Shown here in pieces: positions 4,911 through 60,787 of a stretch of 64,000 bases of DNA. Below the pieces are notes generated by a model. That model was not told the origin of the DNA, searched no databases, and saw only the letters and a list, made by a program, of their open reading frames with translations. The translations under genes were made by a program, and so were the position numbers. Location of the stretch: contig JAWPOF010000007.1 in assembly GCA_033345275.1 (NCBI GenBank), positions 21,760-85,759 of the forward strand, read 5' to 3'. The stretch's first letter is position 1. Each line of letters starts with the position of its first letter. The DNA is from Alphaproteobacteria bacterium (GTDB lineage: Bacteria > Pseudomonadota > Alphaproteobacteria > Rs-D84).

Positions 4911-6947
<2,037 letters not shown>

Positions 6948-6950
<3 letters not shown>

Positions 6951-6977
6951 AAATCCCGCAAATGCGGGATTTTTTGT
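6948..6977. terminator. Bidirectional rho-independent terminator between convergent ligA and ackA
   Basis: Hairpin aaaatcccgcaaatgcgggatttttt flanked by A-run and T-run. Confidence 0.75.
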
Positions 6978-7007
6978 CTTGCTAAATTATTTGCTGCCAG
7001 TTTTAGC

Positions 7008-8261
7008 TCAGGATTTTTGTTTTTGTGCAAAACTGTAATCCATCATTAAATGATTTGGATTGTATTTTTTATTCATGATTGCCAAAGTATCTTCAACGAT
7101 TACCAATTCTTCGTTTGTTGGAATCATAAACAGTTTAACAGGACTGTCAGGTGTGCTGATGACGGTTTCACCTGCACCCTTTCTCGCAAGGGTTTCATTG
7201 TTCTTTTTAGTATCCAGCTTAATACCGATGTTTTCCAATCCTTCGCAGAATTTACCACGCAGATATTCATCGTTTTCACCAACGCCAGCGGTGAATACAA
7301 CTGCGTCAACACGTCCCAGTTCCGCCATGAATGCACCAATATATTTTTTTACATTGTGCACTTCCATATCAATGGCCAGACGGCAAGAATCATTTGTTGT
7401 TTTGTTTTCTTCTACATCACGACGGTCGGCAAAACATTCGGTTACCCCCTTCAGCCCTGAATCCTTGCTTAGATGTGTTTGCATTTGAGCTGGTGACAGT
7501 TTCAATTGTTCCATTACGTACAGAACAACCCCAGGGTCTAAATCCCCTGGACGTGTACCCATCGTCAAACCTGCCAACGGTGTCATCCCCAACGAAGTAT
7601 CAACCGATACACCATTGCGTATCGCAGTTGCAGATGCGCCCGAACCAATATGCATTGTAATCAAATTACACTGGTCAGCCGGTTTGCCTAACATTGCGGC
7701 CGCACGTTTTGACACGTACAGGTGACTGGTGCCATGAAAACCATATTTGCGTACACCCAATTCTGTATACCAGGCACGTGGCACCGCATAGCGATACGCA
7801 TAGTCTGGCATTGTCTGGTGGAACGCGGTGTCAAATACAGCAACCTGTTTCGCGTTTGGTAACAACTGTTTTGCGGTCATAATCCCACGCAATGCAGGTG
7901 GGTTATGCAACGGTGCCAGGGGCGATAATTTATCAATTGTCTTGATAACTTCGTCTGTGATTTCAACAGACGAGGCAAATTTATCGCCGCCCATAACGAC
8001 ACGATGACCGACACCGCCGATTTCATTCAGATCAATTGAAGCATCGCGCAACATGAACAAGACCACGTTTAATGCCTCGTCATGATTTTTCATGGATGTT
8101 TCTTTTTTTTGTTTAGTGCCGTCTGGGTATTTCTGGGTAACGAAAGAATCTGGCAAACCAATCTTTTCAACGTTACCGCCAACAATCGCCGTTTTGGAAT
8201 CTGCGTCAAAGACCTGATATTTCAGGGACGAAGAACCACAATTCAGTGCAAGTATATACAT
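7008..8261 (-). CDS. ackA: Acetate kinase (probable start at internal Met, MYILALNCGSSSLKYQVF)
   Basis: Conserved N-terminus LNCGSSS.KYQ, plus VGHRVVMGG, HNPPALRGI, AVFDTAFHQTMP motifs. Track ORF extends to 8348 but the family alignment supports the start at 8261. Confidence 0.9.
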   Translation of the reverse strand: MYILALNCGSSSLKYQVFDADSKTAIVGGNVEKIGLPDSFVTQKYPDGTKQKKETSMKNHDEALNVVLFMLRDASIDLNEIGGVGHRVVMGGDKFASSVEITDEVIKTIDKLSPLAPLHNPPALRGIMTAKQLLPNAKQVAVFDTAFHQTMPDYAYRYAVPRAWYTELGVRKYGFHGTSHLYVSKRAAAMLGKPADQCNLITMHIGSGASATAIRNGVSVDTSLGMTPLAGLTMGTRPGDLDPGVVLYVMEQLKLSPAQMQTHLSKDSGLKGVTECFADRRDVEENKTTNDSCRLAIDMEVHNVKKYIGAFMAELGRVDAVVFTAGVGENDEYLRGKFCEGLENIGIKLDTKKNNETLARKGAGETVISTPDSPVKLFMIPTNEELVIVEDTLAIMNKKYNPNHLMMDYSFAQKQKS

Positions 8262-11556: not shown

Positions 11557-12726
11557 ATGAAAAGATTGCTGATTTCTCTGTATGGATTTGCGTTTTTTAA
11601 CAAGTTTTTATTGCTGACCCCCGTCTATTCTATTTTTATGTTGGAAAACGGTTTAACTGATTTGCAACTGTCCACAATGTTTATAATTTCGGCACTGGGG
11701 ACAATTCTGGGCCAGGCACCGATTACATATATAACAAACCGTGTGGGACAACGATGGTCTATGATTTGTGGACAAATTCTAAAGGCGATTGCGATTTTAT
11801 TATGGCTGGTGCTGCCAACATATGTGGGATTTGTTGTCGGGATGTTTCTGTGGGGCGTTCAGGCCGGGTTTCGCAGTGTCGCGTTTGAAGGTCTGGTATA
11901 CGATTCTGTATCAGAATACGGTAAAAAACGCGAATATTCACGTATTCTTGGGCGCAAGGCCACGTTCGAGTCCATCGGTACAGCATTGTCTGCGTTTGGC
12001 TCGTTGTTGATGTTTATGGGATATGATTGGGTGACCTGGGCATCGGTAATTGCGATTTTGATTTCTATGGCTTGTTTGCTGTTGGTTCCTTATCACAAAA
12101 ATCTTGCCACACAACAGATGAAATCTGTACCTATGCGTAAACTTATGCGCATAGGTGTCAAGGTGTGCCTTAAAACCCCATGTCTATTGTCGATAATGTT
12201 GTTGACTTTGTTGGCGGCCAATATCCCATATCTGGACGATTTTTTAAGTCCCATAGGGTTGCAAATTGGAATACCGACTGAATATGTTGGGATTGTATCT
12301 TTGTTCTTGTTGGGGTGCGCAACAATTGGTCAGCGATTTGCGTACAAGTTTGCAAACATATCTGAAAACTTGATATATTCGCTTATCGGTGTGGTCGGGC
12401 TGCTGTTCATTGGTTTTGGCGTTGCATATAATGTTGGCATGTTGTGGCTGATGGGAATCGCGTACATGTTGTTTTATGGGCTGTATACGTTATTATACTC
12501 TCAGTTTCAGCACATGGTGCCGTCGCGCCATCGTTCTGTTGTATTGTCTTTTTATACGACCATAAACTATGTAATATATATGATTGTTTGTGGCATTGTT
12601 GGGCTGGGCGCAACTTTTGGCAGTTGGCGTTTCAGCATAGTCATTCTGGGCAGCATGATGTTAGTGCTGTGCCTGTGGGCGTTTTTATTCCTGCGTGGCC
12701 GTTGTCAGATTCATCGCCTGGATTAA
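11557..12726 (+). CDS. MFS-type transporter (12 predicted TM helices)
   Basis: 389 aa, hydrophobic throughout, two six-helix halves with loop motifs such as GxxxDRxGRR-like (NRVGQRWS). Confidence 0.6.
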   Translation: MKRLLISLYGFAFFNKFLLLTPVYSIFMLENGLTDLQLSTMFIISALGTILGQAPITYITNRVGQRWSMICGQILKAIAILLWLVLPTYVGFVVGMFLWGVQAGFRSVAFEGLVYDSVSEYGKKREYSRILGRKATFESIGTALSAFGSLLMFMGYDWVTWASVIAILISMACLLLVPYHKNLATQQMKSVPMRKLMRIGVKVCLKTPCLLSIMLLTLLAANIPYLDDFLSPIGLQIGIPTEYVGIVSLFLLGCATIGQRFAYKFANISENLIYSLIGVVGLLFIGFGVAYNVGMLWLMGIAYMLFYGLYTLLYSQFQHMVPSRHRSVVLSFYTTINYVIYMIVCGIVGLGATFGSWRFSIVILGSMMLVLCLWAFLFLRGRCQIHRLD

Positions 12727-13547: not shown

Positions 13548-13623
13548 GGGGACATAGCTCAGTTGGTAGAGCAAATGACTTTTAATCATTGGGTCCAGGG
13601 TTCGAGTCCCTGTGTCCCCACCA
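13548..13623 (+). tRNA. tRNA-Lys (anticodon UUU)
   Basis: GGGGACATAGCTCAGTTGGTAGAGCAAATGACTTTTAATCATTGGGTCCAGGGTTCGAGTCCCTGTGTCCCCACCA. Near-identical architecture to E. coli tRNA-Lys, anticodon loop CTTTTAA, 7-bp acceptor stem, encoded CCA. Confidence 0.95.
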
Positions 13624-14055: not shown

Positions 14056-15681
14056 ATGCTTCTTGTAAAAAATCTTGAGAAGTCTTTTGATAGTAATGTA
14101 ATTTTCAAAAACTTGAATTTTTCTGTTCAGGACGGTGAAAAAGTCGCTGTTGTCGGTTTAAATGGTGCCGGAAAATCCACCTTGTTTAGAATTTTATTGA
14201 ATCAAATTGATAGTGATGCAGGCGAATTCTATATGGGTAAAAGTCCACGTATTGGTTGGATGCCACAAACAATAGATGAATTGAATCTGCCGGATGATGT
14301 TATTGTTTATGATTTCTTGCGTTCGGGGCGACCTTTGGCCGAAATAGAACGACGTATGACGGAAATATACACCAAAATGGCCGAAGGTGATGATTCAGAA
14401 GAATTGTTACAGCAATTGGGGGTGTGTCAATCTGAATTTGAATACTGGGATGGATATACTGCGGAATCTGAATTAGAAACTATGATAGACCAGATGGGTA
14501 TCGATCGTCAAAATCTGAACAAAAAGTTGGGCGAATTATCAGGCGGTCAAAAATCCAAGATTTCATTTATCCGAACATTATATTCACGCCCCAGCATTTT
14601 ATTTTTAGACGAGCCGACAAACCACCTAGATGCCACCAGTCGTGAATGGATGACGGATTATTTGGTTGCAACAGATGCGTCGGTAATATTTATATCGCAC
14701 GATGAAGAATTCATAGACAAGGTCGCGGATAAGACTCTGTATTTAGATGCTATGATGCATACCGGGACATTATATGGGTTTGGGTACAAACGTTTCTTGC
14801 GTACATTGGCGGAAACAAACGAGAGTTTGGAACGGCAATTACAAAAGCAAATGCGTGAAATAAATCGTATCCAGGCATTTGTTGACAGCCAACGTGGCAA
14901 ATCGGGTAAGGCAAAAAGACAGGCGCAAAGTCGTGAAAAAATGTTAGATAAAATGCGTCAGAATCTGGTGGTTGCACCCATGGAAAAGAAAGATATTGAT
15001 TTGGAGCTAAGTCCAAATCGTGAAGCGGATATTTTGCCAATCACGGTGGAAAATTTAAACTTTTCATACGTTGCCAATAAGAAAGTAATTAAAAATCTTA
15101 CATTTTCATTAAATCAGGGCGAGAAGTTTTTAATTGTTGGGGAAAATGGCGCAGGTAAATCGACCTTGTTAAAATTATTACACAAAATATTAAAACCTGA
15201 TTCTGGTATTGTTCGTATTGGCAAAAAAACCGACTTGGGATACTATGCCCAGGAATACGAGACATTAAACCCAAATATAACAATTCTGGAAAACGCATCA
15301 AGTGTAACAAATATCAGTACATCAAAACTGCGTTCTGTTTTAAATCACTTTAATTTTGTTGGGGACAAGGTAAAACAAAGCGTAAAAACAATGTCGCCAG
15401 GCGAACGCAGCCGTTTAGAGCTGGCCAAATTATGTCTTGGTGGTGCCAATGTTTTATTATTAGACGAACCAACAAATCATCTGGATGTAGCAACCAAGAA
15501 AACCATCGCACAAAGTTTTTCAGAATACGGTGGTACACTGATTATAGTCAGCCATGATTTAGAATTTTTGAAACACCTGGGCATAGATAGAATGCTAATG
15601 TTGCCCAGTGGGCGATTACAGTTTTTTGATGAAAACGTTGTTCGTAGATACATGGAACAAGAAAAACTAAAAGGACATTGA
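14056..15681 (+). CDS. ABC-F family ATPase (EttA/Uup/YheS-like translation factor), two tandem ABC domains
   Basis: Two Walker A motifs (GLNGAGKST, GENGAGKST) and two signature motifs (LSGGQKSKISF, MSPGERSRLELA). Charged inter-domain linker, no TM domain. Likely start is MLLVKNLEKSF, since the track's TTG/ATG at 14005 adds a hydrophobic extension. Confidence 0.85.
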   Translation: MLLVKNLEKSFDSNVIFKNLNFSVQDGEKVAVVGLNGAGKSTLFRILLNQIDSDAGEFYMGKSPRIGWMPQTIDELNLPDDVIVYDFLRSGRPLAEIERRMTEIYTKMAEGDDSEELLQQLGVCQSEFEYWDGYTAESELETMIDQMGIDRQNLNKKLGELSGGQKSKISFIRTLYSRPSILFLDEPTNHLDATSREWMTDYLVATDASVIFISHDEEFIDKVADKTLYLDAMMHTGTLYGFGYKRFLRTLAETNESLERQLQKQMREINRIQAFVDSQRGKSGKAKRQAQSREKMLDKMRQNLVVAPMEKKDIDLELSPNREADILPITVENLNFSYVANKKVIKNLTFSLNQGEKFLIVGENGAGKSTLLKLLHKILKPDSGIVRIGKKTDLGYYAQEYETLNPNITILENASSVTNISTSKLRSVLNHFNFVGDKVKQSVKTMSPGERSRLELAKLCLGGANVLLLDEPTNHLDVATKKTIAQSFSEYGGTLIIVSHDLEFLKHLGIDRMLMLPSGRLQFFDENVVRRYMEQEKLKGH

Positions 15682-15682
15682 T

Positions 15683-16729
15683 ACGCAAGGATTTGGCTTA
15701 CAAATAAAACCCGCAGGCAATAATTGTAATCTAAGGTGTAAATATTGTTATGCGGCCCCTTTCGCCAAATCATGTATCAAAATAATGCCCCTGGATATTC
15801 TTGAAACTGCAATAAGAAAAAATTTAGCTTTTCAAGGCAGTGTATTTTTCTCTTGGCATGGTGGTGAACCGTTACTTGCGGGTATAGACTTTTTCAAAAA
15901 GGCAGTTGAATTTATAGATAAATATAAAAACAGTGAACATATTGTAACAAATATGGTGCAAACAAATGCTACACTAATAACCCCAGAATTTGCTCGGTTC
16001 TTCAAGGATAATGGTATCACTGTTAGTGTCAGCATTGATGGGCCAGAATTTTTACATAATTTGAACCGTGTTGACCATGCAGGGATTGGTAGTTTTTCGA
16101 ATGTAATGCGTGTAAGGGATGTTGGACTGCAACCACCGGTGATTGCAACAATTACGCAAGACAGCATAAAATACGGCAAAGAAATATTTGATTTTTTGGT
16201 TGTCAATGGGTTTACCGATATCAAATTTAGTCCAGTTTACGATTCTTGTTCTGATAATTTTAGTGTTAGTTCGGATGATTGGTTTTACTTTTTAAAAGAT
16301 GTATTACACGCATGGTTTGAACATGGTGACACATCTGTCAAGGTTCGCGAAATAGATGAAGTTGTTGCGTGGTTGTCAAATAAAACGATGAACCTGTGTG
16401 CAAGCAAACATTCTTGCTTAAGTTGGATATCTATAGACCCAGATGGGAATATTTATCCATGTGAATATCTGCGCAGTGAAATGCCATACGGAAACATATT
16501 AGACATGGATTTGGCTGATGTTTACAAGACTGCTTCTTATGCAAGATTTAAAAAACTATTTTTACACAAACCAGAAAAATGCCAGAAGTGTCGTTTTTGG
16601 GATTTGTGTGGAAATGGCTGTCCTGCGACTCGTGTCAAGGACGGTCTAATGACCCATGACGGTGTCTATGTTTATTGCGAGGAAAGAATCAAACTGTTTA
16701 ACGAACTAAAAATTATTCTTGAATCCTGA
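15683..16729 (+). CDS. Radical SAM / SPASM-domain enzyme (anSME / peptide-maturase-like); apparent start codon ACG
   Basis: In-frame translation from 15680 gives DTQGFGLQIKPAGNNCNLRCKYCYAAPF (CxxxCxxC rSAM cluster in the canonical N-terminal position). The C-terminus carries a SPASM motif CQKCRFWDLCGNGCPATR. No ATG/GTG/TTG lies between the upstream in-frame TAA (15668) and the motif. A good SD AAAAGGA sits 7 nt before ACG 15683. The first in-frame ATG (15785) is downstream of the Fe-S motif. Confidence 0.75.
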   Translation, partial: TQGFGLQIKPAGNNCNLRCKYCYAAPFAKSCIKIMPLDILETAIRKNLAFQGSVFFSWHGGEPLLAGIDFFKKAVEFIDKYKNSEHIVTNMVQTNATLITPEFARFFKDNGITVSVSIDGPEFLHNLNRVDHAGIGSFSNVMRVRDVGLQPPVIATITQDSIKYGKEIFDFLVVNGFTDIKFSPVYDSCSDNFSVSSDDWFYFLKDVLHAWFEHGDTSVKVREIDEVVAWLSNKTMNLCASKHSCLSWISIDPDGNIYPCEYLRSEMPYGNILDMDLADVYKTASYARFKKLFLHKPEKCQKCRFWDLCGNGCPATRVKDGLMTHDGVYVYCEERIKLFNELKIILES

Positions 16730-16771
16730 GCATAAATATCTTCATGTACAAAGATAGACAGGAGAACAAAC

Positions 16772-16867
16772 ATGAAAAAACAAATGTTGTTGGCCGCTAT
16801 CCATAGAATAGAAGAGCAATCTGCTATGAAATGGCGTGGCATCATGGTCAACTGGATGAAATGTTAA
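16772..16867 (+). CDS. Small peptide gene (31 aa, MKKQMLLAAIHRIEEQSAMKWRGIMVNWMKC), candidate RiPP precursor co-transcribed with the rSAM-SPASM gene
   Basis: Strong SD (gacAGGAGAacaaacATG), an ATG, 31 sense codons and a TAA immediately followed by a strong intrinsic terminator. It lies 43 bp downstream of the rSAM gene on the same strand. The C-terminus is rich in Trp/Lys (KW...NWMKC). Confidence 0.55.
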   Translation: MKKQMLLAAIHRIEEQSAMKWRGIMVNWMKC

Positions 16868-16870
16868 TAT

Positions 16871-16895
16871 TCCCCCGTAATGGGGGGATTTTTTA
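16871..16895. terminator. Rho-independent terminator (tcccccgtaatggggggatttttt) ending the rSAM-peptide transcript; also serves the convergent PLD gene
   Basis: 7-bp GC-rich stem, 4-nt loop, T6 run. On the opposite strand a short A-run precedes the hairpin. Confidence 0.8.
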
Positions 16896-17480
16896 CCTAT
16901 ACATCCCCCACAAATACTCAAATTGTTTGCTGTATTCTTGTGCTGGGTAGGTCAGGAAGATACAGTTTTCGTTGTTGTACTTGGTGGCGGCGGTGGTCCA
17001 GTTATAGGAACCCGTCACCATACTCATATTATCAAAGACGGCAAATTTATTATGTTCAATCTTGTGCTGGCGGTTGGTGCGGACGGGAATGCCGGCGGCG
17101 ACCAACTCCCCAATCATGGACGATTTATGCCCAGCCATAGTTCGGTCTGTGACAATTCGCACCCTTCCGCCCCGACGGTGGGCGGCAATAATGGCGTTCG
17201 CAATTTTCGGATTGGTTATGGAATATACGGCAACGTCGATTTTATCGGCCCGACCCAGCTCGGCAATTATGCGGTCTTCGCATTCGGTGCCGGGGGTGAA
17301 ATATGATTCTATGTGTGCGGGTATGCTGGGTGGTGCGACCGTCCGTGTGGGCAATTGCGCCCCAACGCCAACCCCAATGGCAAACGCAATCCCAATAACA
17401 AAAGTCCATTGTCTGACAACCATACAACCCCAAACAAAAGACCACTCAAATAAAGAGTGGTCGGGAGTTGATCGATTCAA
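16893..17480 (-). CDS. Phospholipase D-family protein (Nuc-like endonuclease / PLD superfamily), secreted
   Basis: HKIEHNKFAVFD matches the HxK(x)4D PLD motif. N-terminal signal/TM (VVRQWTFVIGIAFAIGVGVGA). Size (~170 aa mature) is typical of Nuc-type PLD nucleases. Confidence 0.7.
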   Translation of the reverse strand: MNRSTPDHSLFEWSFVWGCMVVRQWTFVIGIAFAIGVGVGAQLPTRTVAPPSIPAHIESYFTPGTECEDRIIAELGRADKIDVAVYSITNPKIANAIIAAHRRGGRVRIVTDRTMAGHKSSMIGELVAAGIPVRTNRQHKIEHNKFAVFDNMSMVTGSYNWTTAATKYNNENCIFLTYPAQEYSKQFEYLWGMYR

Positions 17481-17665: not shown

Positions 17666-18532
17666 TTACATCACGATCTGTAATACTTTATTTACATTTC
17701 TGTCGGGTGATTTTCCCATTTCTAAATCTTCTTTGATATCATATAACAGATTTACTACAGATTGAAAACGCTGTCTTTCTGGGAAATATACGTCTCCAGT
17801 GTCGCCATATCCTGCCAGCAATTCTTTTGCACCATTGCCATAGTAATAGTGCATGTCGCGTGATGGTTCGGCATATCCCGCTTCGCCAAAGTCAATAAGC
17901 CCCACGATTTTTTTTGTGTTTGTATCGAACATCATGTTGCCAAAATGCAAATCACAGTGTGTCAAAACTGGTTTTACAGGATATTGTTCAGATAAGTATT
18001 TATATCTGTCGCGCACGGCGTTGATGTGCTGAATCTGCTCATCTGTGAATTGTTTTTTTACTATGTCAGGAAAGTATTCGTCAAACACTTCTAAGCTGTC
18101 TGTGTAATGTAATGGTGCATCTTGCAACCAACTGTAATCATTCTCCAGATTATGTAATTCGCGTGCAATTTTACCGATTTGACGTAATATATCGGATTTT
18201 GTTTCTTCGTCAAAAGAATCGTGCATTTCCTGGGTGTATGTCGTGCCGTGTACCAATGTTTCGCCAATGATGTTTCGACCTGACTTGTCCTTTTTGTGAT
18301 ATAAAATTTCTGGAACCTCAAAGCTCAACTTGCCTTTTAGAAAGTTTAATACTTTGATTTCTTTGTCAGGATTGTTAAATGGCGCGTCTTCTTTTTTAGG
18401 TATTCTGAATACAACGCTGTCATTAACCAATACAGCGATGACATTTCGTCCCGAACCTATTTTTTTTATACTTTTTATTTCTATTTCAGGAAACGTTTCG
18501 ATGATGGTTTCCTGGATTTGTTCAGTTGTCAT
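17666..18532 (-). CDS. Phosphotransferase-family protein (APH / choline-kinase-like kinase fold)
   Basis: Brenner motif HCDLHFGNMMFD and the downstream IDFGEAGYAEPSRD (DFG-like) typical of the aminoglycoside phosphotransferase / CotS / choline kinase family. Confidence 0.75.
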   Translation of the reverse strand: MTTEQIQETIIETFPEIEIKSIKKIGSGRNVIAVLVNDSVVFRIPKKEDAPFNNPDKEIKVLNFLKGKLSFEVPEILYHKKDKSGRNIIGETLVHGTTYTQEMHDSFDEETKSDILRQIGKIARELHNLENDYSWLQDAPLHYTDSLEVFDEYFPDIVKKQFTDEQIQHINAVRDRYKYLSEQYPVKPVLTHCDLHFGNMMFDTNTKKIVGLIDFGEAGYAEPSRDMHYYYGNGAKELLAGYGDTGDVYFPERQRFQSVVNLLYDIKEDLEMGKSPDRNVNKVLQIVM

Positions 18533-18914
18533 TTTTTTATTCCTGTGTTTTTAATTGCCAAAACACCCCAGAAATTCGTATGAATTTACTGGCTGTTTCG
18601 CAACAAATTATTGCGTGATTATATTTTTTTGAGATTTTGCGGCGGGTCAGTGCAATTGCACTATATTGACACATGCATTATAAGGTATGATATTGCAAAA
18701 GTCAAGATATGTGTTTCGGGGGACAAAAATCGTTTTTTACAAATGCACAACTTCTATGTAAGGAAATTGTGATGCGATGTATTCGGCGGCCAGTCTTCGG
18801 TGGCATTGGTGTGCGGTCTTTTCTGTGCACATCAGGCATATGCGGTCCAGTTCGTCCGGATTGCGCCCCGTCAATGGCGCACGCCCCGCAATCAGGCGTC
18901 TGTAAATCGGTTCG

Positions 18915-19736
18915 GTGTCGGCCCAGGTTGCCCCGGACAGAAATGTTGATACACGTGATGTAGAATGGTTAAAAAAATCACTGACCCAGTTAGATTGTTA
19001 TGAACCCGATACCCGTGCCAGCGAAAGTGCCGACAATCCAAACCCGTATCCGAACCAGAAGCTGTTTGATGCGATTGAAAAGTTCAGAAAGTTACAAAAA
19101 ATCAAAGAGCGTGGCGCTGTCAAACCCGGCTACTGGACAGAAGTAAAAATAAATCAAGAACTGGAAAAGAAACAAAGCGAGAAAAAAGATATGAAAGATA
19201 TTGATACAAACAAAGTGTCCGATATGAAATTTGAACAAGCATACAATAAATTACAATAACCCGAAGGTGGCTATACAGACGGTAAAGACCAAGTTGATGA
19301 TGAACCAACCAACATGGGAATTAAACAAAGCACGCTGGACAGATACGCTAACACGCATCCAGACAAAAATTTCCCAGCAGATGTAAAATATTTAACAGCC
19401 GCACAGGCCAAAGAAATTTATAAAAACGAATATTGGGACAATACAAGAATCCCAGAAATCAAAAACGACAGAATACCTGATGCAGTTTTTGATATGAATG
19501 TGATGGGAGGTGCTGGGAAGACAGTTCAACGTGCACTAAATTCTTTCTTGGACGCAAACTTGGTTGTTGATGGCGCAATAGGCAGCGAAACAATTAAATC
19601 CATAAATGCTATTCCCGATAACGCGGTCAACAAATTTATGGTCGCACTAAAATCTGAAAGAATAGATTACTTAAAACGCACAAAAAACTGGGTAACGGCA
19701 AAAAACGGTTGGTTGAAAAGAGTAAATAAATACTAA
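18915..19736 (+). pseudogene. GH108-like lysozyme / PG_binding_3 protein interrupted by an in-frame TAA (19257-19259) immediately before the catalytic EGGY motif
   Basis: Track ORFs 18915-19259 and 19314-19736 are in the same frame. Read through the TAA, the sequence gives ...FEQAYNKLQ*PEGGYTDGKDQVDDEPTNMGIKQST..., matching the GH108 N-terminal motif (F..A...L.hEGGY...DPGGETN.GIT). The C-terminus VDGAIGSETIKSIN resembles a peptidoglycan-binding domain. Confidence 0.6.
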
Positions 19737-20186
19737 TTACTGTCTAAGCCATATTCCTTCAAGTGTTGCTTGCATGCCACAAAATGCACTAAATGAATCT
19801 GTATTGATAAAATGCAGATTCATTTTATCTTCTGACTCCATGTGAAACAATATACCAACAGGAATAAAATATTCCGTATCTGTCTCTCTGTCATATTGAT
19901 ATTTTTTGCTGTTGTATTCTGCCTTATCCCAGCTGATTTATATTTTACCTTCAACATCACAGAGTCGCCGAACAATATACGCAAAGTTTTTACCATGTTC
20001 GCTATTATTTAAATTTGGCGTATTGTTGTATTTGTGACAACGTAATCAATCATAGGTTGTATATTGCGTTTGCGTTTAATTTTTGCTGGATTTTGGCGAC
20101 GGTATAAGAAATAATTCAACCTGGATTTGAAAGATATTTATTAAACAACCGAATAAAAGGAGGGATGAATTGGAACATAAAATATT

Positions 20187-21736: not shown

Positions 21737-23762
21737 AGAAATACATTAAATCATGCGCCCACGAATCTATATCGTTATCACGTGCCGCTGTTGATGCCAA
21801 TTTGAACAAATCCCGATGTTCGCGATAGTCAACAAAATAATATCGCATCCAACCGCTTTGTCGCGTGCCCAATAATTCGCCCACGCCACGCATCATCAAA
21901 TCTTGTTCCGCAATAGCAAATCCATCATCTGTTTCACACAGTACATCTAATCGTTTTAATCCATCGTCTGATACGTTTCGTCCAAATACCAGTACACAGT
22001 ACGATTGTGTGTTGCCACGTCCGACGCGCCCACGTAATTGGTGCAACGCCGCCAATCCGAACCGTTCTGCGTTTTCGATTACAATGATAGACGCCTGTGG
22101 CACGTCAATTCCAACCTCGATAACAGTTGTGGCGACCAGTATTGGCATATTGGAATCTGGTGCGGCAAATTCAGCCATAACCGCATCGCGTTCTTTCTTG
22201 TCCATTTTTCCATGAACCAGTCCCGCATTTGGGAAATATTCTGCCAGCATTTTATGCCGTTCTTCGGCAGCGGTCATGGCATTATCGTTTTCTGATTCTT
22301 CAACCAGCGGACAAACCCAGAACACCTTGGCGCCTGCGTTAACTTGCATATCTATGCGTTCTAATAAATCCATAATACGTCCGCATGACAGTTTTGTTGT
22401 TTTAATAGGCTTTCTTCCTGCGGGCTTTTCGTTAATAATTGATACATCCATATCGCCGTAAATCGTCATGGATAATGTACGCGGAATTGGTGTTGCAGAC
22501 AATGCCAGCAAATCGGGGTTATTGCCCTTGTTGCGTAATGCTTCGCGCTGGGCAACGCCAAATCTGTGCTGTTCATCAATTATCACCAGTCCTAAATCTT
22601 TATACTCAACATCCGCCGAGAACAATGCGTGCGTTCCCACAACAACGCGTGTTCGTCCCGAACGCAATGATATTAATTTTTCACGGCGTGCCACGCCTTT
22701 GTCCCGTCCGGTCAGAATATCGCATACAATACCAATTTTATCGCACATTGGTTTTAATTTTGCAAAGTGCTGTTGCGCCAACGTGTCCGTCGGGGCCAGT
22801 ATGGCTGTCTGCGCGCCCATTTCCGCCATGCGTATGGCAGCGGCCAATGCGACAATGGTTTTTCCGCTGCCTACATCCCCCTGAACCAGTCGCATCATAG
22901 GTACATCGCGCATCATGTCGGCAAATATTTCGTCGCAGGTGCGTTTTTGCGCGCCTGTCATTTCAAAAGGTAATGTTGCCCAAAACCGTTCCATTAAATT
23001 ATGTTTTTGCGCCCGCACGCTTCGCTGGTTCCGTACGTCCATTCGATTGCGCCGACTGATAACAATCGCCACCTGGTGCGCCAACAATTCACAATACGCC
23101 AGTTTTGCCATATATATGTTGTTCGGCGCCAAATCAGAATCTGACTTTGGAAAATGCACATGTTCCAGCGCATCAAAGAATTCCAATACCCGTTCATCAC
23201 TTTCGCCGCGCAGTTTATCTGGCAGGGCGGCAAAAATCTGGTCGCGAATATTTGCGAATACTTTCTGGGTTAAACCTTCGCCCGCCGGGTAAATTGCCTG
23301 GGCGGATGGTATTTTTGCTGCGTTTTGTAATTCTTCGATAAAGTCCGGGTGGTTAATTGTCGGTTTGGCTGTCTTTTCCAGTTTGCCCGATACCATACGC
23401 CACGTCCCCACCGGCATTTTATTCAGCCAATAATCCAGATATTTTGCGTTAAAGAATTGAATAATAACCGTATTTCCCAATTTATCGTTGCATGTAATCT
23501 GGGTCGGGCTGCGTCGTCCACGAAATGCGCGCCCCGCCCGATGGGATTTGATTAGCAATGGAATTGTAATTGTGTCTCCGGGATTTGCGTCCATAACATT
23601 TTCGGTTATTCCGCGTGCCCGCACATACGACGGGCGATGGCGCAGAAAATCCAATACTCGTCGTCCCCCCAAAACTTCGTCCAGACGCGCCGCCAACGCG
23701 GGTCCCACCCCGCGAATAAATTGCAGGTCAGTATTTAAAAAATCTATTACCTCGCGCCTCAT
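21708..23762 (-). CDS. recG: ATP-dependent DNA helicase RecG
   Basis: 684 aa. Wedge-domain N-terminus, helicase motifs GDVGSGKT (I), DEQHRFGV (II), SATPIPRT (III), LRGRVGRG (VI). Overlaps bepA by 29 nt. Confidence 0.92.
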   Translation of the reverse strand: MRREVIDFLNTDLQFIRGVGPALAARLDEVLGGRRVLDFLRHRPSYVRARGITENVMDANPGDTITIPLLIKSHRAGRAFRGRRSPTQITCNDKLGNTVIIQFFNAKYLDYWLNKMPVGTWRMVSGKLEKTAKPTINHPDFIEELQNAAKIPSAQAIYPAGEGLTQKVFANIRDQIFAALPDKLRGESDERVLEFFDALEHVHFPKSDSDLAPNNIYMAKLAYCELLAHQVAIVISRRNRMDVRNQRSVRAQKHNLMERFWATLPFEMTGAQKRTCDEIFADMMRDVPMMRLVQGDVGSGKTIVALAAAIRMAEMGAQTAILAPTDTLAQQHFAKLKPMCDKIGIVCDILTGRDKGVARREKLISLRSGRTRVVVGTHALFSADVEYKDLGLVIIDEQHRFGVAQREALRNKGNNPDLLALSATPIPRTLSMTIYGDMDVSIINEKPAGRKPIKTTKLSCGRIMDLLERIDMQVNAGAKVFWVCPLVEESENDNAMTAAEERHKMLAEYFPNAGLVHGKMDKKERDAVMAEFAAPDSNMPILVATTVIEVGIDVPQASIIVIENAERFGLAALHQLRGRVGRGNTQSYCVLVFGRNVSDDGLKRLDVLCETDDGFAIAEQDLMMRGVGELLGTRQSGWMRYYFVDYREHRDLFKLASTAARDNDIDSWAHDLMYFFDRGVVLGA

Positions 23763-23844: not shown

Positions 23845-24178
23845 TCCACTGTAAGATGCACAGGGCATGGCTGGCCAGAAATGGTCAGAGGAAAGTCCGG
23901 ACTGCACGGGACAGCGTACCGGCTAATATACCGGGCGGGGCAACCCGACGATCAGAGCAACAGTGACGTAAACGATTAAATTCGAGTGAAACGGGCAATC
24001 TCTGCGCGCAGCAACTTCAAATAGGCCCCCTATATGTGTCCCGCATCGGGGGCGGGTAGAAGGCTTGACATATCGCAGTAATGCAATATGCAGATTAATC
24101 ATGCCCACTACCGTGGGGTGGTATGCGAAACATACTGGCCTGCGGCATGACAGAATCCGGCTTATATGTTCATCTGCA
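23845..24178 (+). ncRNA. rnpB: RNase P RNA (bacterial type A)
   Basis: Universally conserved blocks present: GAGGAAAGTCCGGACTGCACGGGACAGCGTACCGG (P4/CR-I region), later ACAGAATCCGGCTTAT (CR-V / P4 3' strand). Followed by terminator atgcgcccacgggcgcat+T7 at 24181-24206. Ends approximate. Confidence 0.85.
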
Positions 24179-24261
24179 CCATGCGCCCACGGGCGCATGT
24201 TTTTTATCTTGTATATTTGTTTGCTTTTTTATGATAGAATATATCAAAACGGAGAGAGTAC

Positions 24262-57961: not shown

Positions 57962-58049
57962 TGGCGGAGCGTATAGGACTCGAACCTATGGACCGAAAAA
58001 CCCGGTCACAGATTAGCAATCTGCTGCATTACCACTCTGCCAACGCTCC
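57962..58049 (-). tRNA. tRNA-Ser (anticodon GCU), type II with long variable arm
   Basis: Reverse complement is GGAGCGTTGGCAGAGTGGTAATGCAGCAGATTGCTAATCTGTGACCGGGTTTTTCGGTCCATAGGTTCGAGTCCTATACGCTCCGCCA. Anticodon loop TTGCTAA, 7-bp acceptor, encoded CCA. Confidence 0.92.
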
Positions 58050-60697: not shown

Positions 60698-60787
60698 GGA
60701 TGGTTGGCAGAGCGGTCGAATGCGGCGGTCTTGAAAACCGTTGTGGGGGCAACCCCACCGGGGGTTCGAATCCCTCACCATCCGCCA
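60698..60787 (+). tRNA. tRNA-Ser (anticodon UGA), type II
   Basis: GGATGGTTGGCAGAGCGGTCGAATGCGGCGGTCTTGAAAACCGTTGTGGGGGCAACCCCACCGGGGGTTCGAATCCCTCACCATCCGCCA. Anticodon loop CTTGAAA, long variable arm, encoded CCA. Confidence 0.9.

Follow-up and report, generated by a model that had tools for sequence, protein, structure and literature searches.

Does the short open reading frame (ORF) that follows a radical S-adenosylmethionine (SAM)/SPASM enzyme gene encode the substrate of that enzyme, or does it lie there by chance? The question is raised by a locus of Alphaproteobacteria bacterium (GTDB lineage Rs-D84; GenBank assembly GCA_033345275.1, contig JAWPOF010000007.1), situated in a stretch of 64,000 nucleotides (positions 21,760 to 85,759 of the forward strand) that we call the window and number from its first letter. 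A first-pass annotation, made from the letters alone, had proposed that the enzyme and a 31-codon ORF form a cassette for a peptide that is made on the ribosome and modified after translation (a RiPP). We find that peptides of the same type recur beside related enzymes in several phyla, and we consider it highly probable that the two genes are a genuine maturase–precursor pair. On balance, we read the locus as a three-gene operon of a widespread, apparently undescribed RiPP-type system, with genes for an ABC-F ATPase, a radical SAM/SPASM enzyme resembling the anaerobic sulfatase-maturating enzymes (anSMEs) and a 31-aa precursor, followed by a terminator. Its features are as follows.

14056..15681, + strand: ABC-F ATPase gene, 541 aa, two ABC domains
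15677..16729, + strand: anSME-like radical SAM/SPASM maturase gene, annotated start ATT 15677 (translation, Pfam)
15725..15748, + strand: CxxxCxxC (CNLRCKYC), the radical-SAM [4Fe-4S] cluster motif (translation; its three Cys are invariant in 118 family members)
16112..16113, + strand: junction of a 12-nt in-frame deletion (GTGTTAAATATC is present in the 98% relative; DNA alignment)
16580..16633, + strand: SPASM Cys motif CQKCRFWDLCGNGCPATR, auxiliary-cluster ligands (aligns with C317/C320/C326/C330 of anSMEcpe)
16760..16765, + strand: Shine-Dalgarno sequence AGGAGA, 6 nt 5' of the peptide ATG
16772..16867, + strand: precursor-like peptide gene, 31 aa, MKKQMLLAAIHRIEEQSAMKWRGIMVNWMKC, stop TAA (ORF list)
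16853..16864, + strand: codons of the C-terminal W-M-K-C (family motif W-x-K/R-C-stop; W, K and C invariant in peptide alignments)
16869..16895, + strand: intrinsic terminator, 9-bp stem with five G-C pairs and T run, closing the proposed operon

The radical SAM/SPASM frame is open on the + strand from 15671 to the TGA at 16727-16729. Its translation contains the N-terminal CxxxCxxC and the C-terminal SPASM motif described on the first pass, and Pfam matches it to Radical_SAM and SPASM. The 31-codon ORF was likewise found as described, with its AGGAGA, ATG and TAA, and the strong intrinsic terminator said to follow the TAA is a hairpin at 16869-16889 that runs into a T run; similar hairpins lie 3' of the peptide gene in loci L001, L013, L014 and L015. 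Two details require correction. The spacer between the maturase gene and the peptide ORF measures 42 nt (43 bp had been given), and the enzyme start that had been placed at 15669 does not hold, since no ATG, GTG or TTG occurs in the maturase frame between the upstream stop (15668-15670) and CxxxCxxC; the NCBI start is the ATT at 15677. The peptide itself divides into a leader, MKKQMLLAAIHRIEEQSAMK, and a core, WRGIMVNWMKC.

One answer to the question would be that the enzyme matures sulfatases, as ordinary anSMEs do, and that the small ORF arose by chance, is an element associated with the terminator or encodes a leader peptide that regulates the ABC-F gene. Short ORFs are indeed abundant by chance: 105 ORFs of at least 25 aa overlap the region 13-20 kb of the window, so that a 31-codon ORF is uninformative when taken alone, and its significance comes from conservation only. 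The peptide of L007, the 98% relative, is identical to that of the window, and the 72% relatives (L001-L006) and the 70% relative (L008) encode MQKQMLLTAIQRIETHVAKQWRGIMVNWMKC and MQKQMLQIALERLEKRNPLTWRGMMTNWMKC, respectively, both with the length of the window peptide and with the C-terminal W-x-K-C kept. Within the 11-codon core, the window differs from L001 by two synonymous and no nonsynonymous changes and from L008 by five synonymous and two nonsynonymous changes. Because the core codon changes are mostly silent, we interpret the ORF as a translated gene, not an RNA element; in addition, an Rfam scan of the whole window at gathering thresholds finds no family at the peptide or the terminator. 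As judged from these codon comparisons, the peptide frame is shown to be under purifying selection. Existing annotation largely hides or mis-frames the peptide family, as gene callers miss the gene or take the wrong frame. In L001-L006, for example, the annotated gene is an overlapping 56-aa ORF (MYAKTNVIDRYPTDRD..., ~7095-7265) and not the conserved 31-aa peptide frame at 7099-7194.

To compare enzymes with and without such a peptide, loci were gathered by exact look-up and by scans of genome and metagenome collections, which gave at least 6-10 in-family loci each among the matches listed. The genome of the window is absent from these matches, and an exact look-up of the window enzyme gave no record. 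We counted a locus as in-family if its enzyme is at least 40% identical to P0001, an intact relative of the window enzyme (35 loci, 23 distinct lineages). The controls were 144 out-of-family loci (1.08 Mb) with enzymes of at most 37% identity, mostly Bacteroidales-type anSMEs. An ORF of 20-90 aa ending in W-x-[KR]-C-stop is present in 31 of the 35 in-family loci, where it encodes about 20 distinct peptides, and in none of the 144 out-of-family loci. Counted by distinct lineage, it occurs in 19/23 against 0/144 (Fisher p ~2e-21), and it is this recurrence that supports the RiPP-type pairing suggested on the first pass. The four in-family loci without the ORF are explained by contig edges or an in-frame stop: in L009 and L107 no more than 230 nt of contig remain beyond the enzyme gene, in L012 the contig starts at it, and the enzyme gene of L108 is interrupted. 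The latter (1255-2292, on a metagenome contig) encodes a 41%-identical family maturase with an in-frame stop at ~1690, and may be a pseudogene or an assembly error.

Orthologous loci had been named as the place to test the small ORF. There it is conserved and adjacent, in the 98%, 72% and 70% relatives as well as in other phyla, where it adjoins enzymes of 43-51% identity. It usually lies directly 3' of the maturase gene; in L010, an SR1 genome, it is found 1.4 kb upstream, and L011 and L094 have it after the ABC-F gene, not after the radical SAM gene. In L014 (Patescibacteria; 5063-5281), two tandem precursor genes, encoding ..EWSGSAAQWIKC and ..EWQGSVASWTKC, follow the maturase gene, the first of them with a GTG start.

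These co-occurrence data already contradict the reading as an ordinary anSME with an unrelated ORF. Protein-level conservation across phyla with synonymous drift argues against a chance ORF, and the lack of an Rfam match against an RNA element. A regulatory leader would have a general precedent among ARE-type ABC-F genes, which are often under the control of short leader peptides. Yet the ORF lies 3' of the genes and before the terminator, not upstream as in an attenuator, and it tracks the radical SAM gene even where no ABC-F gene is present. The best hidden Markov model (HMM) and Protein Data Bank matches of the enzyme are to anSMEs, but every member tested scores below the anSME cut-off and no in-family locus has a sulfatase signature. 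We therefore regard this explanation as very improbable.

The peptides found beside the maturases form a coherent family. The W, K and C of the tail are invariant in peptide alignments apart from a single K-to-R variant (L099), and the leader is variable, of a K-K-x-F-L-x-x-V/I type. Searching 1.84 billion cluster representatives with a profile built from the peptides gives 41 matches at E <= 0.001. Nearly all are proteins of 31-53 aa ending in W-x-K-C, with the consensus M-S-x-K-x-F-L-L-x-V-I...N-W-R-G-T-L-[ST]-[SN]-W-I-K-C; two matches are long proteins (835 and 1713 aa) in which a short internal segment aligns. Two further proteins are irregular. P0187 (241 aa) is a chimera from an internal deletion or misassembly, in which a complete precursor (..MSNKEFLKKIINSLKNNSSNKENWRGELSNWIKC) is fused directly to the N-terminal ~207 residues of a family maturase; in P0197 (85 aa), the precursor reads through its own stop (..WIKCWRNK..).

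Judged by locus, the named hosts include Alphaproteobacteria, candidate division SR1, Candidatus Saccharimonas, other Patescibacteria and Clostridia, and protein matches add Bacilli and Elusimicrobia. Homologues of the enzyme constitute a large family in metagenomes and metagenome-assembled genomes, with ~41-51% identity beyond the closest relatives. The first-pass suggestion of an undescribed RiPP locus of an alphaproteobacterial lineage thus stands in one part, since no curated model or paper matched, and falls in the other, as the system is spread over Patescibacteria, Clostridia and others. In plasmid and phage collections searched in protein mode, we found anSMEs at identities of 32% or less and no in-family member. 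A radical SAM enzyme just outside the family (37% identical; L109, 1181-1380) is followed by a 63-aa ORF rich in Ser, Asn, Trp, Asp and Tyr (..SSNWSDSLWSNSYSDDYYVDN), which may represent a different precursor class of a neighbouring enzyme clade.

What kind of enzyme accompanies these peptides? The resemblance to anSME-type maturases noted on the first pass is borne out, at scores below the family cut-off. TIGR03942 (anSME) is the best NCBIfam model, with 250.7 bits for the window enzyme and 260-277 for the intact relatives P0001, P0043, P0023 and P0113, against a cut-off of 349. DynA (NF041298) comes second with 191-213 bits against a cut-off of 450. GrrM/OscB, the best of the cyclophane-synthase models (XyeB, YhhB, AmcB and FxsB are lower), reaches 139-171 bits against 310, and DarE (NF038005) 122-145 bits against 650; PapB and DarE/DarW are further neighbours below cut-off. 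No NCBIfam model reaches its cut-off with the window enzyme or the four intact relatives. The closest solved structure is that of anSMEcpe (175 bits, ~30% identity; Foldseek TM 0.87 for 4k37), followed in Foldseek by the triceptide synthase ChlB bound to the leader of its precursor (TM 0.85) and then by CteB and SuiB.

Of the 118 members of the family, 117-118 retain each of the three Cys of CxxxCxxC and the eight auxiliary Cys. These match the cluster ligands of anSMEcpe, and both auxiliary clusters are fully ligated in an anSME fold. The enzyme begins directly with the radical SAM domain and therefore has no RiPP recognition element (RRE). At the position of D277, the proposed base of anSME, 106/118 members have Glu and 12/118 have Ala or Ser. 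Clustering inside the sulfatase maturases had been named as a possible refutation. It was not found: the TIGR03942 scores of 251-277 bits lie under the cut-off of 349, and a sulfatase signature is present neither in any in-family locus nor in the 64-kb window, whereas the genome scan finds one in 7 of 74 more distant anSME-like loci. Among the matches listed, an identity gap separates the family (41-51% and above) from true anSMEs (37% or less). At the level of sequence, the enzyme family is a separate anSME-like clade, partnered by a peptide and, in the loci compared, by no sulfatase.

Like anSMEs (TIGR03942; PDB 4K36-4K39), the window family has the same size, CxxxCxxC, two Cys-ligated auxiliary clusters, no RRE and usually an acidic residue after the third Cys of auxiliary cluster I (Aux I). 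Unlike them, it scores 70-100 bits under the cut-off, has no sulfatase nearby and is paired with a dedicated peptide of 25-50 aa with a C-terminal Cys; as this Cys is the last residue, the peptide offers no C-x-P-x-R context. With the triceptide enzymes (XyeB, GrrM/OscB, YhhB, AmcB, HtkB and ChlB), the family shares the character of anSME-like maturases without RRE, as well as short precursors in which W-x-K fits the aromatic-x-x register. It differs from them in that the Aux I cysteines, missing in ChlB, are kept, in that its one motif stands at the very C-terminus with an invariant Cys after it, and in the ABC-F linkage, which is not reported for triceptides. The darobactin and dynobactin enzymes DarE and DynA are more distant. 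The window family lies far under their cut-offs, lacks the N-terminal extension of DarE type and a DarBCD-type exporter, and has an unrelated core sequence; it is found mostly in uncultured Patescibacteria, Firmicutes and gut Alphaproteobacteria, not in Photorhabdus-like Gammaproteobacteria.

With both enzyme and substrate type in hand, a reaction can be proposed. The maturase would bind the peptide leader and cleave SAM, and the 5'-deoxyadenosyl radical would take a hydrogen in the C-terminal tail, likeliest from Lys C-beta of W-x-K. Addition of the Lys radical to the Trp indole would give a three-residue cyclophane comparable to those of triceptides and to the W-S-K ring of darobactin, with the auxiliary clusters accepting the electron. 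The invariant terminal Cys might undergo a second modification, to a thioether or by anSME-like oxidation, or serve as a functional thiol. We favour the Trp–Lys cyclophane because aromatic-x-Lys is a documented crosslink site of anSME-like radical SAM enzymes. HtkB joins His-C2 to Lys-C-beta on H-T-K, with an F-T-K motif as a further precedent (PMC11499958), and darobactin has a Lys–Trp C–C crosslink in the W-S-K register (PMC9055067). In our peptides W-x-K/R is invariant at positions -4 to -2 and corresponds to the aromatic-x-x motif of triceptides. By analogy with these systems, a Trp–Lys crosslink specifically is a plausible though tentative assignment.

The third gene gives a hint as to function. 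The ABC-F protein of the window reaches 403.4 bits with NF000355, "ribosomal protection-like ABC-F family protein" (cut-off 380), and stays under the cut-offs of EttA, Uup and all named resistance subfamilies. Its orthologues show the Pfam pattern ABC_tran, ABC_tran_Xtn, ABC_tran without a membrane domain. In 9/23 in-family lineages, the window included, a homologue (33-98% identity over ~290 to 540 aligned residues) is encoded no more than 5 kb from the maturase gene, against 0/144 out-of-family loci (p ~4e-9), and partial ABC-F ends are found at two contig edges. In the window, L007, L092 and L098, the ABC-F and maturase genes overlap or lie 1-3 nt apart. The identities of ABC-F and maturase pair as 73/73, 44/50, 42/50 and 39/46; this roughly parallel drop is what would be expected of a co-inherited cassette. 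The ABC-F gene, which had not been considered on the first pass, belongs to the conserved cassette in many lineages.

That a "ribosomal protection-like" ABC-F recurs, often in translational coupling, suggests a product that is directed at the ribosome and from which the producer protects itself. The ABC-F protection proteins of antibiotic producers (TlrC/CarA/OleB/SrmB type; NF000171) and the ARE ABC-Fs offer a parallel, in that the generic model is passed and the gene, like those for self-resistance, is linked to a biosynthetic enzyme. In contrast to the named ABC-F resistance subfamilies, the window protein falls below their cut-offs, and its protective role is a prediction. No link between an ABC-F protein and a radical SAM-modified peptide was found in the literature searched. 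The modified peptide would then act on the ribosome, with the ABC-F protein protecting the producer; a ribosomal target with ABC-F immunity is possible but doubtful. The wider proposal, in which an anSME-like radical SAM enzyme introduces a new modification of the Trp-x-Lys-Cys tail and is coupled to a dedicated ABC-F, yielding either a ribosome-targeting peptide with self-immunity or a regulator of the cell's own translation, should be taken as similarly speculative.

Several points count against the picture drawn so far. There is redundancy among some of the loci, and short contigs are numerous. The ABC-F gene is absent from 14/23 lineages, including the whole ..DDWRGLLHNWIKC clade, and is thus a frequent, not an obligatory partner; some of its adjacency could also reflect shared ancestry of a transferred cassette. 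A conserved leader peptidase or exporter is found in none of the in-family loci, where MFS, MacB or ABC exporter genes are scattered, and the lack of a conserved exporter would be unusual for a secreted antibiotic. As to the chemistry, the upstream W-R-G cannot close to a triceptide ring, as Gly lacks a C-beta, the Trp–Lys crosslink is argued from analogy, and the invariant Cys, the retained Aux I and the acidic residue at the D277 position (Glu in 106/118) point equally to Cys-directed, anSME-like chemistry.

This last point leads to an alternative reaction, an anSME-type two-electron oxidation of the terminal Cys to a thioaldehyde or formylglycine-like aldehyde, which may condense with the Lys amine and would leave no Trp–Lys crosslink. 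It would agree with anSME being the best neighbour in sequence (251-277 bits) and structure (4k37, TM 0.87), with both auxiliary clusters ligated as in anSME (ChlB has no Aux I cysteines), with the Glu found in most members at the proposed base and with the invariance of the C-terminal Cys. However, the anSME motif C/S-x-P/A-x-R requires residues beyond the Cys, and here the Cys is last; the D277 equivalent is Ala or Ser in 12/118 members, and a strict dependence on such a base, which we had considered, is weakened accordingly. Oxidation of Cys alone also leaves the invariance of Trp and Lys unexplained, and the next-best models after anSME are those of DynA and the GrrM/OscB cyclophane synthases. 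We consider this reaction unlikely and retain the Trp–Lys cyclophane as the preferred, still tentative, assignment.

The main functional rival to a secreted ribosome-targeting product is an intracellular role, since neither a peptidase nor an exporter is conserved. The product would be a peptide-derived cofactor comparable to pyrroloquinoline quinone (PQQ) and mycofactocin, or an intracellular effector, perhaps a translational regulator that acts with the ABC-F protein on the producer's own ribosomes. Both known cofactor systems (MftA/MftC and PqqA/PqqE) resemble the window family in using a SPASM enzyme on a short peptide with conserved residues at or near its C-terminus and in needing no export machinery. 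The invariant residues of our peptides lie at the extreme C-terminus, and the conserved residues of MftA are likewise found at its C-terminus. Retention of the system in small-genome lineages (Saccharimonas, SR1, other Patescibacteria) and the translational coupling of the ABC-F gene to the enzyme gene would also fit an intracellular role. A cofactor pathway is harder to reconcile with the loci, in which no PqqB/C/D-like or MftB/D/E/F-like accessory enzymes recur, neither an MftB or PqqD chaperone nor tailoring genes, and the enzyme matches these cofactor families weakly in sequence (TM ~0.59 for the PqqE fold). The leaders diverge fast, with just ~4-11 core residues fixed, the tandem precursors of L014 are typical of RiPP diversification, and the patchy spread over phyla suggests horizontal transfer of an accessory trait. 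An intracellular role of either kind therefore seems rather improbable to us, and a RiPP-type system with a frequent ABC-F partner is the reading we carry forward.

Does the system still work in the genome from which the window derives? The maturase allele raises doubts. The first in-frame ATG, at 15785, lies 3' of the CxxxCxxC motif, and the codon that aligns with Met1 of the 98%-identical relatives (P0001, P0135, P0137; locus L007) is ACG, at 15683-15685; L007 has ATG at this codon. The three relatives begin with ATG two codons 3' of the ATT at 15677, and the spacing of a Shine-Dalgarno AGGA at 15672-15675 fits the codon at 15683-15685. The ABC-F stop codon (TGA, 15679-15681) overlaps the ATT at which the maturase is taken to begin, and a single nucleotide separates its end from the ancestral start codon. 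The NCBI protein MDW2974900.1 (P0136, "radical SAM protein [Alphaproteobacteria bacterium]") is identical to the window translation if ATT 15677 is read as Met.

In addition, a loss of 12 nt relative to L007 deletes GVKY and turns the following L148 into V. Gly144 is conserved in 118/118 and Leu148 in 116/118 members of the family alignment, and the deletion falls within helix 138-150 of the AlphaFold2 model (pLDDT 93). In the >90%-identity cluster, among the listed members of at least 340 aa, the window enzyme alone has 350 residues and the others have 352. We infer that the maturase may be weakly expressed or decaying in this genome, with the peptide gene intact; an assembly error is possible. 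As ACG replaces ATG and the deletion takes an invariant Gly, RiPP production is probably reduced or lost here.

Around the cassette, gene content varies. A gene for an MFS_1 transporter (11557-12726, + strand) lies two genes 5' of the ABC-F gene of the window, with a 223-aa ORF and a tRNA gene in between. On the other side, a PLD-like (PLDc_2) gene (16893-17480, - strand) converges on the terminator region of the peptide gene, and an APH-family kinase gene (17666-18532, - strand) comes next. In L007, what lies 3' of the cassette is a pair of APH genes and a different ORF of 141 aa, so the downstream flank is variable. Within 18500-19740 of the window, no long ORFs occur at ~18.5-19.3 kb, after which there is a 140-aa GH108/PG_binding_3 lysozyme-like ORF (19314-19736); its GH108 match begins at profile position 24 of 85, and it may be a phage-derived or truncated remnant of a muramidase. 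Rfam places a bacterial class A RNase P RNA at 23853-24180 (+) and three tRNA genes at 13548-13620 (+), 57965-58049 (-) and 60698-60784 (+), one tRNA gene lying ~435 nt 5' of the ABC-F start codon.

Further genes lie near the pair at other loci. In L097, a Peptidase_S66 gene (LD-carboxypeptidase/MccF-like family; 6211-7113, - strand) lies convergent and directly after the precursor gene, with an M16 peptidase gene upstream; this arrangement is found in that lineage only. NUDIX hydrolase genes are present near the cassettes of L090 (1549-1971), L092 (1577-1981, 7284-7802 and 8820-9215), L095 (4293-4739, immediately 5' of the maturase gene) and L097 (7570-8001 and 9993-10475), a recurrence that could reflect the variable-region gene content of small genomes and not a functional link. 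A UbiE-like methyltransferase was rejected as a conserved partner, being common to L094 and L011 only, and the MFS gene directly 5' of the maturase gene in L090 shows no similarity to the MFS gene of the window. The PADLOC matches are generic (radical SAM core of pVip, ABC ATPase), and the locus is therefore not a known defence system.

Six precursor peptides compared with NCBIfam (release 20; to E = 10) and Pfam match no family. In the literature searched, which excludes subscription journals, we found no description of the system, also when looking for the literal peptide strings SWIKC and NWMKC. This is thus apparently a radical SAM/SPASM RiPP-type system whose precursor family is new and whose ABC-F linkage is unusual; a prior description in subscription journals is possible. 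If the pair is active, it would define a precursor family that is new and probably place SPASM enzymes in a reaction or substrate context not seen before. This context lies on the border, in sequence, that separates sulfatase maturases from cyclophane synthases, and would help to explain how these enzymes switch chemistry. The recurrent, coupled ABC-F gene is a lead to a ribosome-directed function and an unusual case of an ABC-F protein linked to a ribosomally made peptide. The system is found almost wholly in uncultured lineages with reduced genomes, in which specialised metabolism is thought to be scarce.

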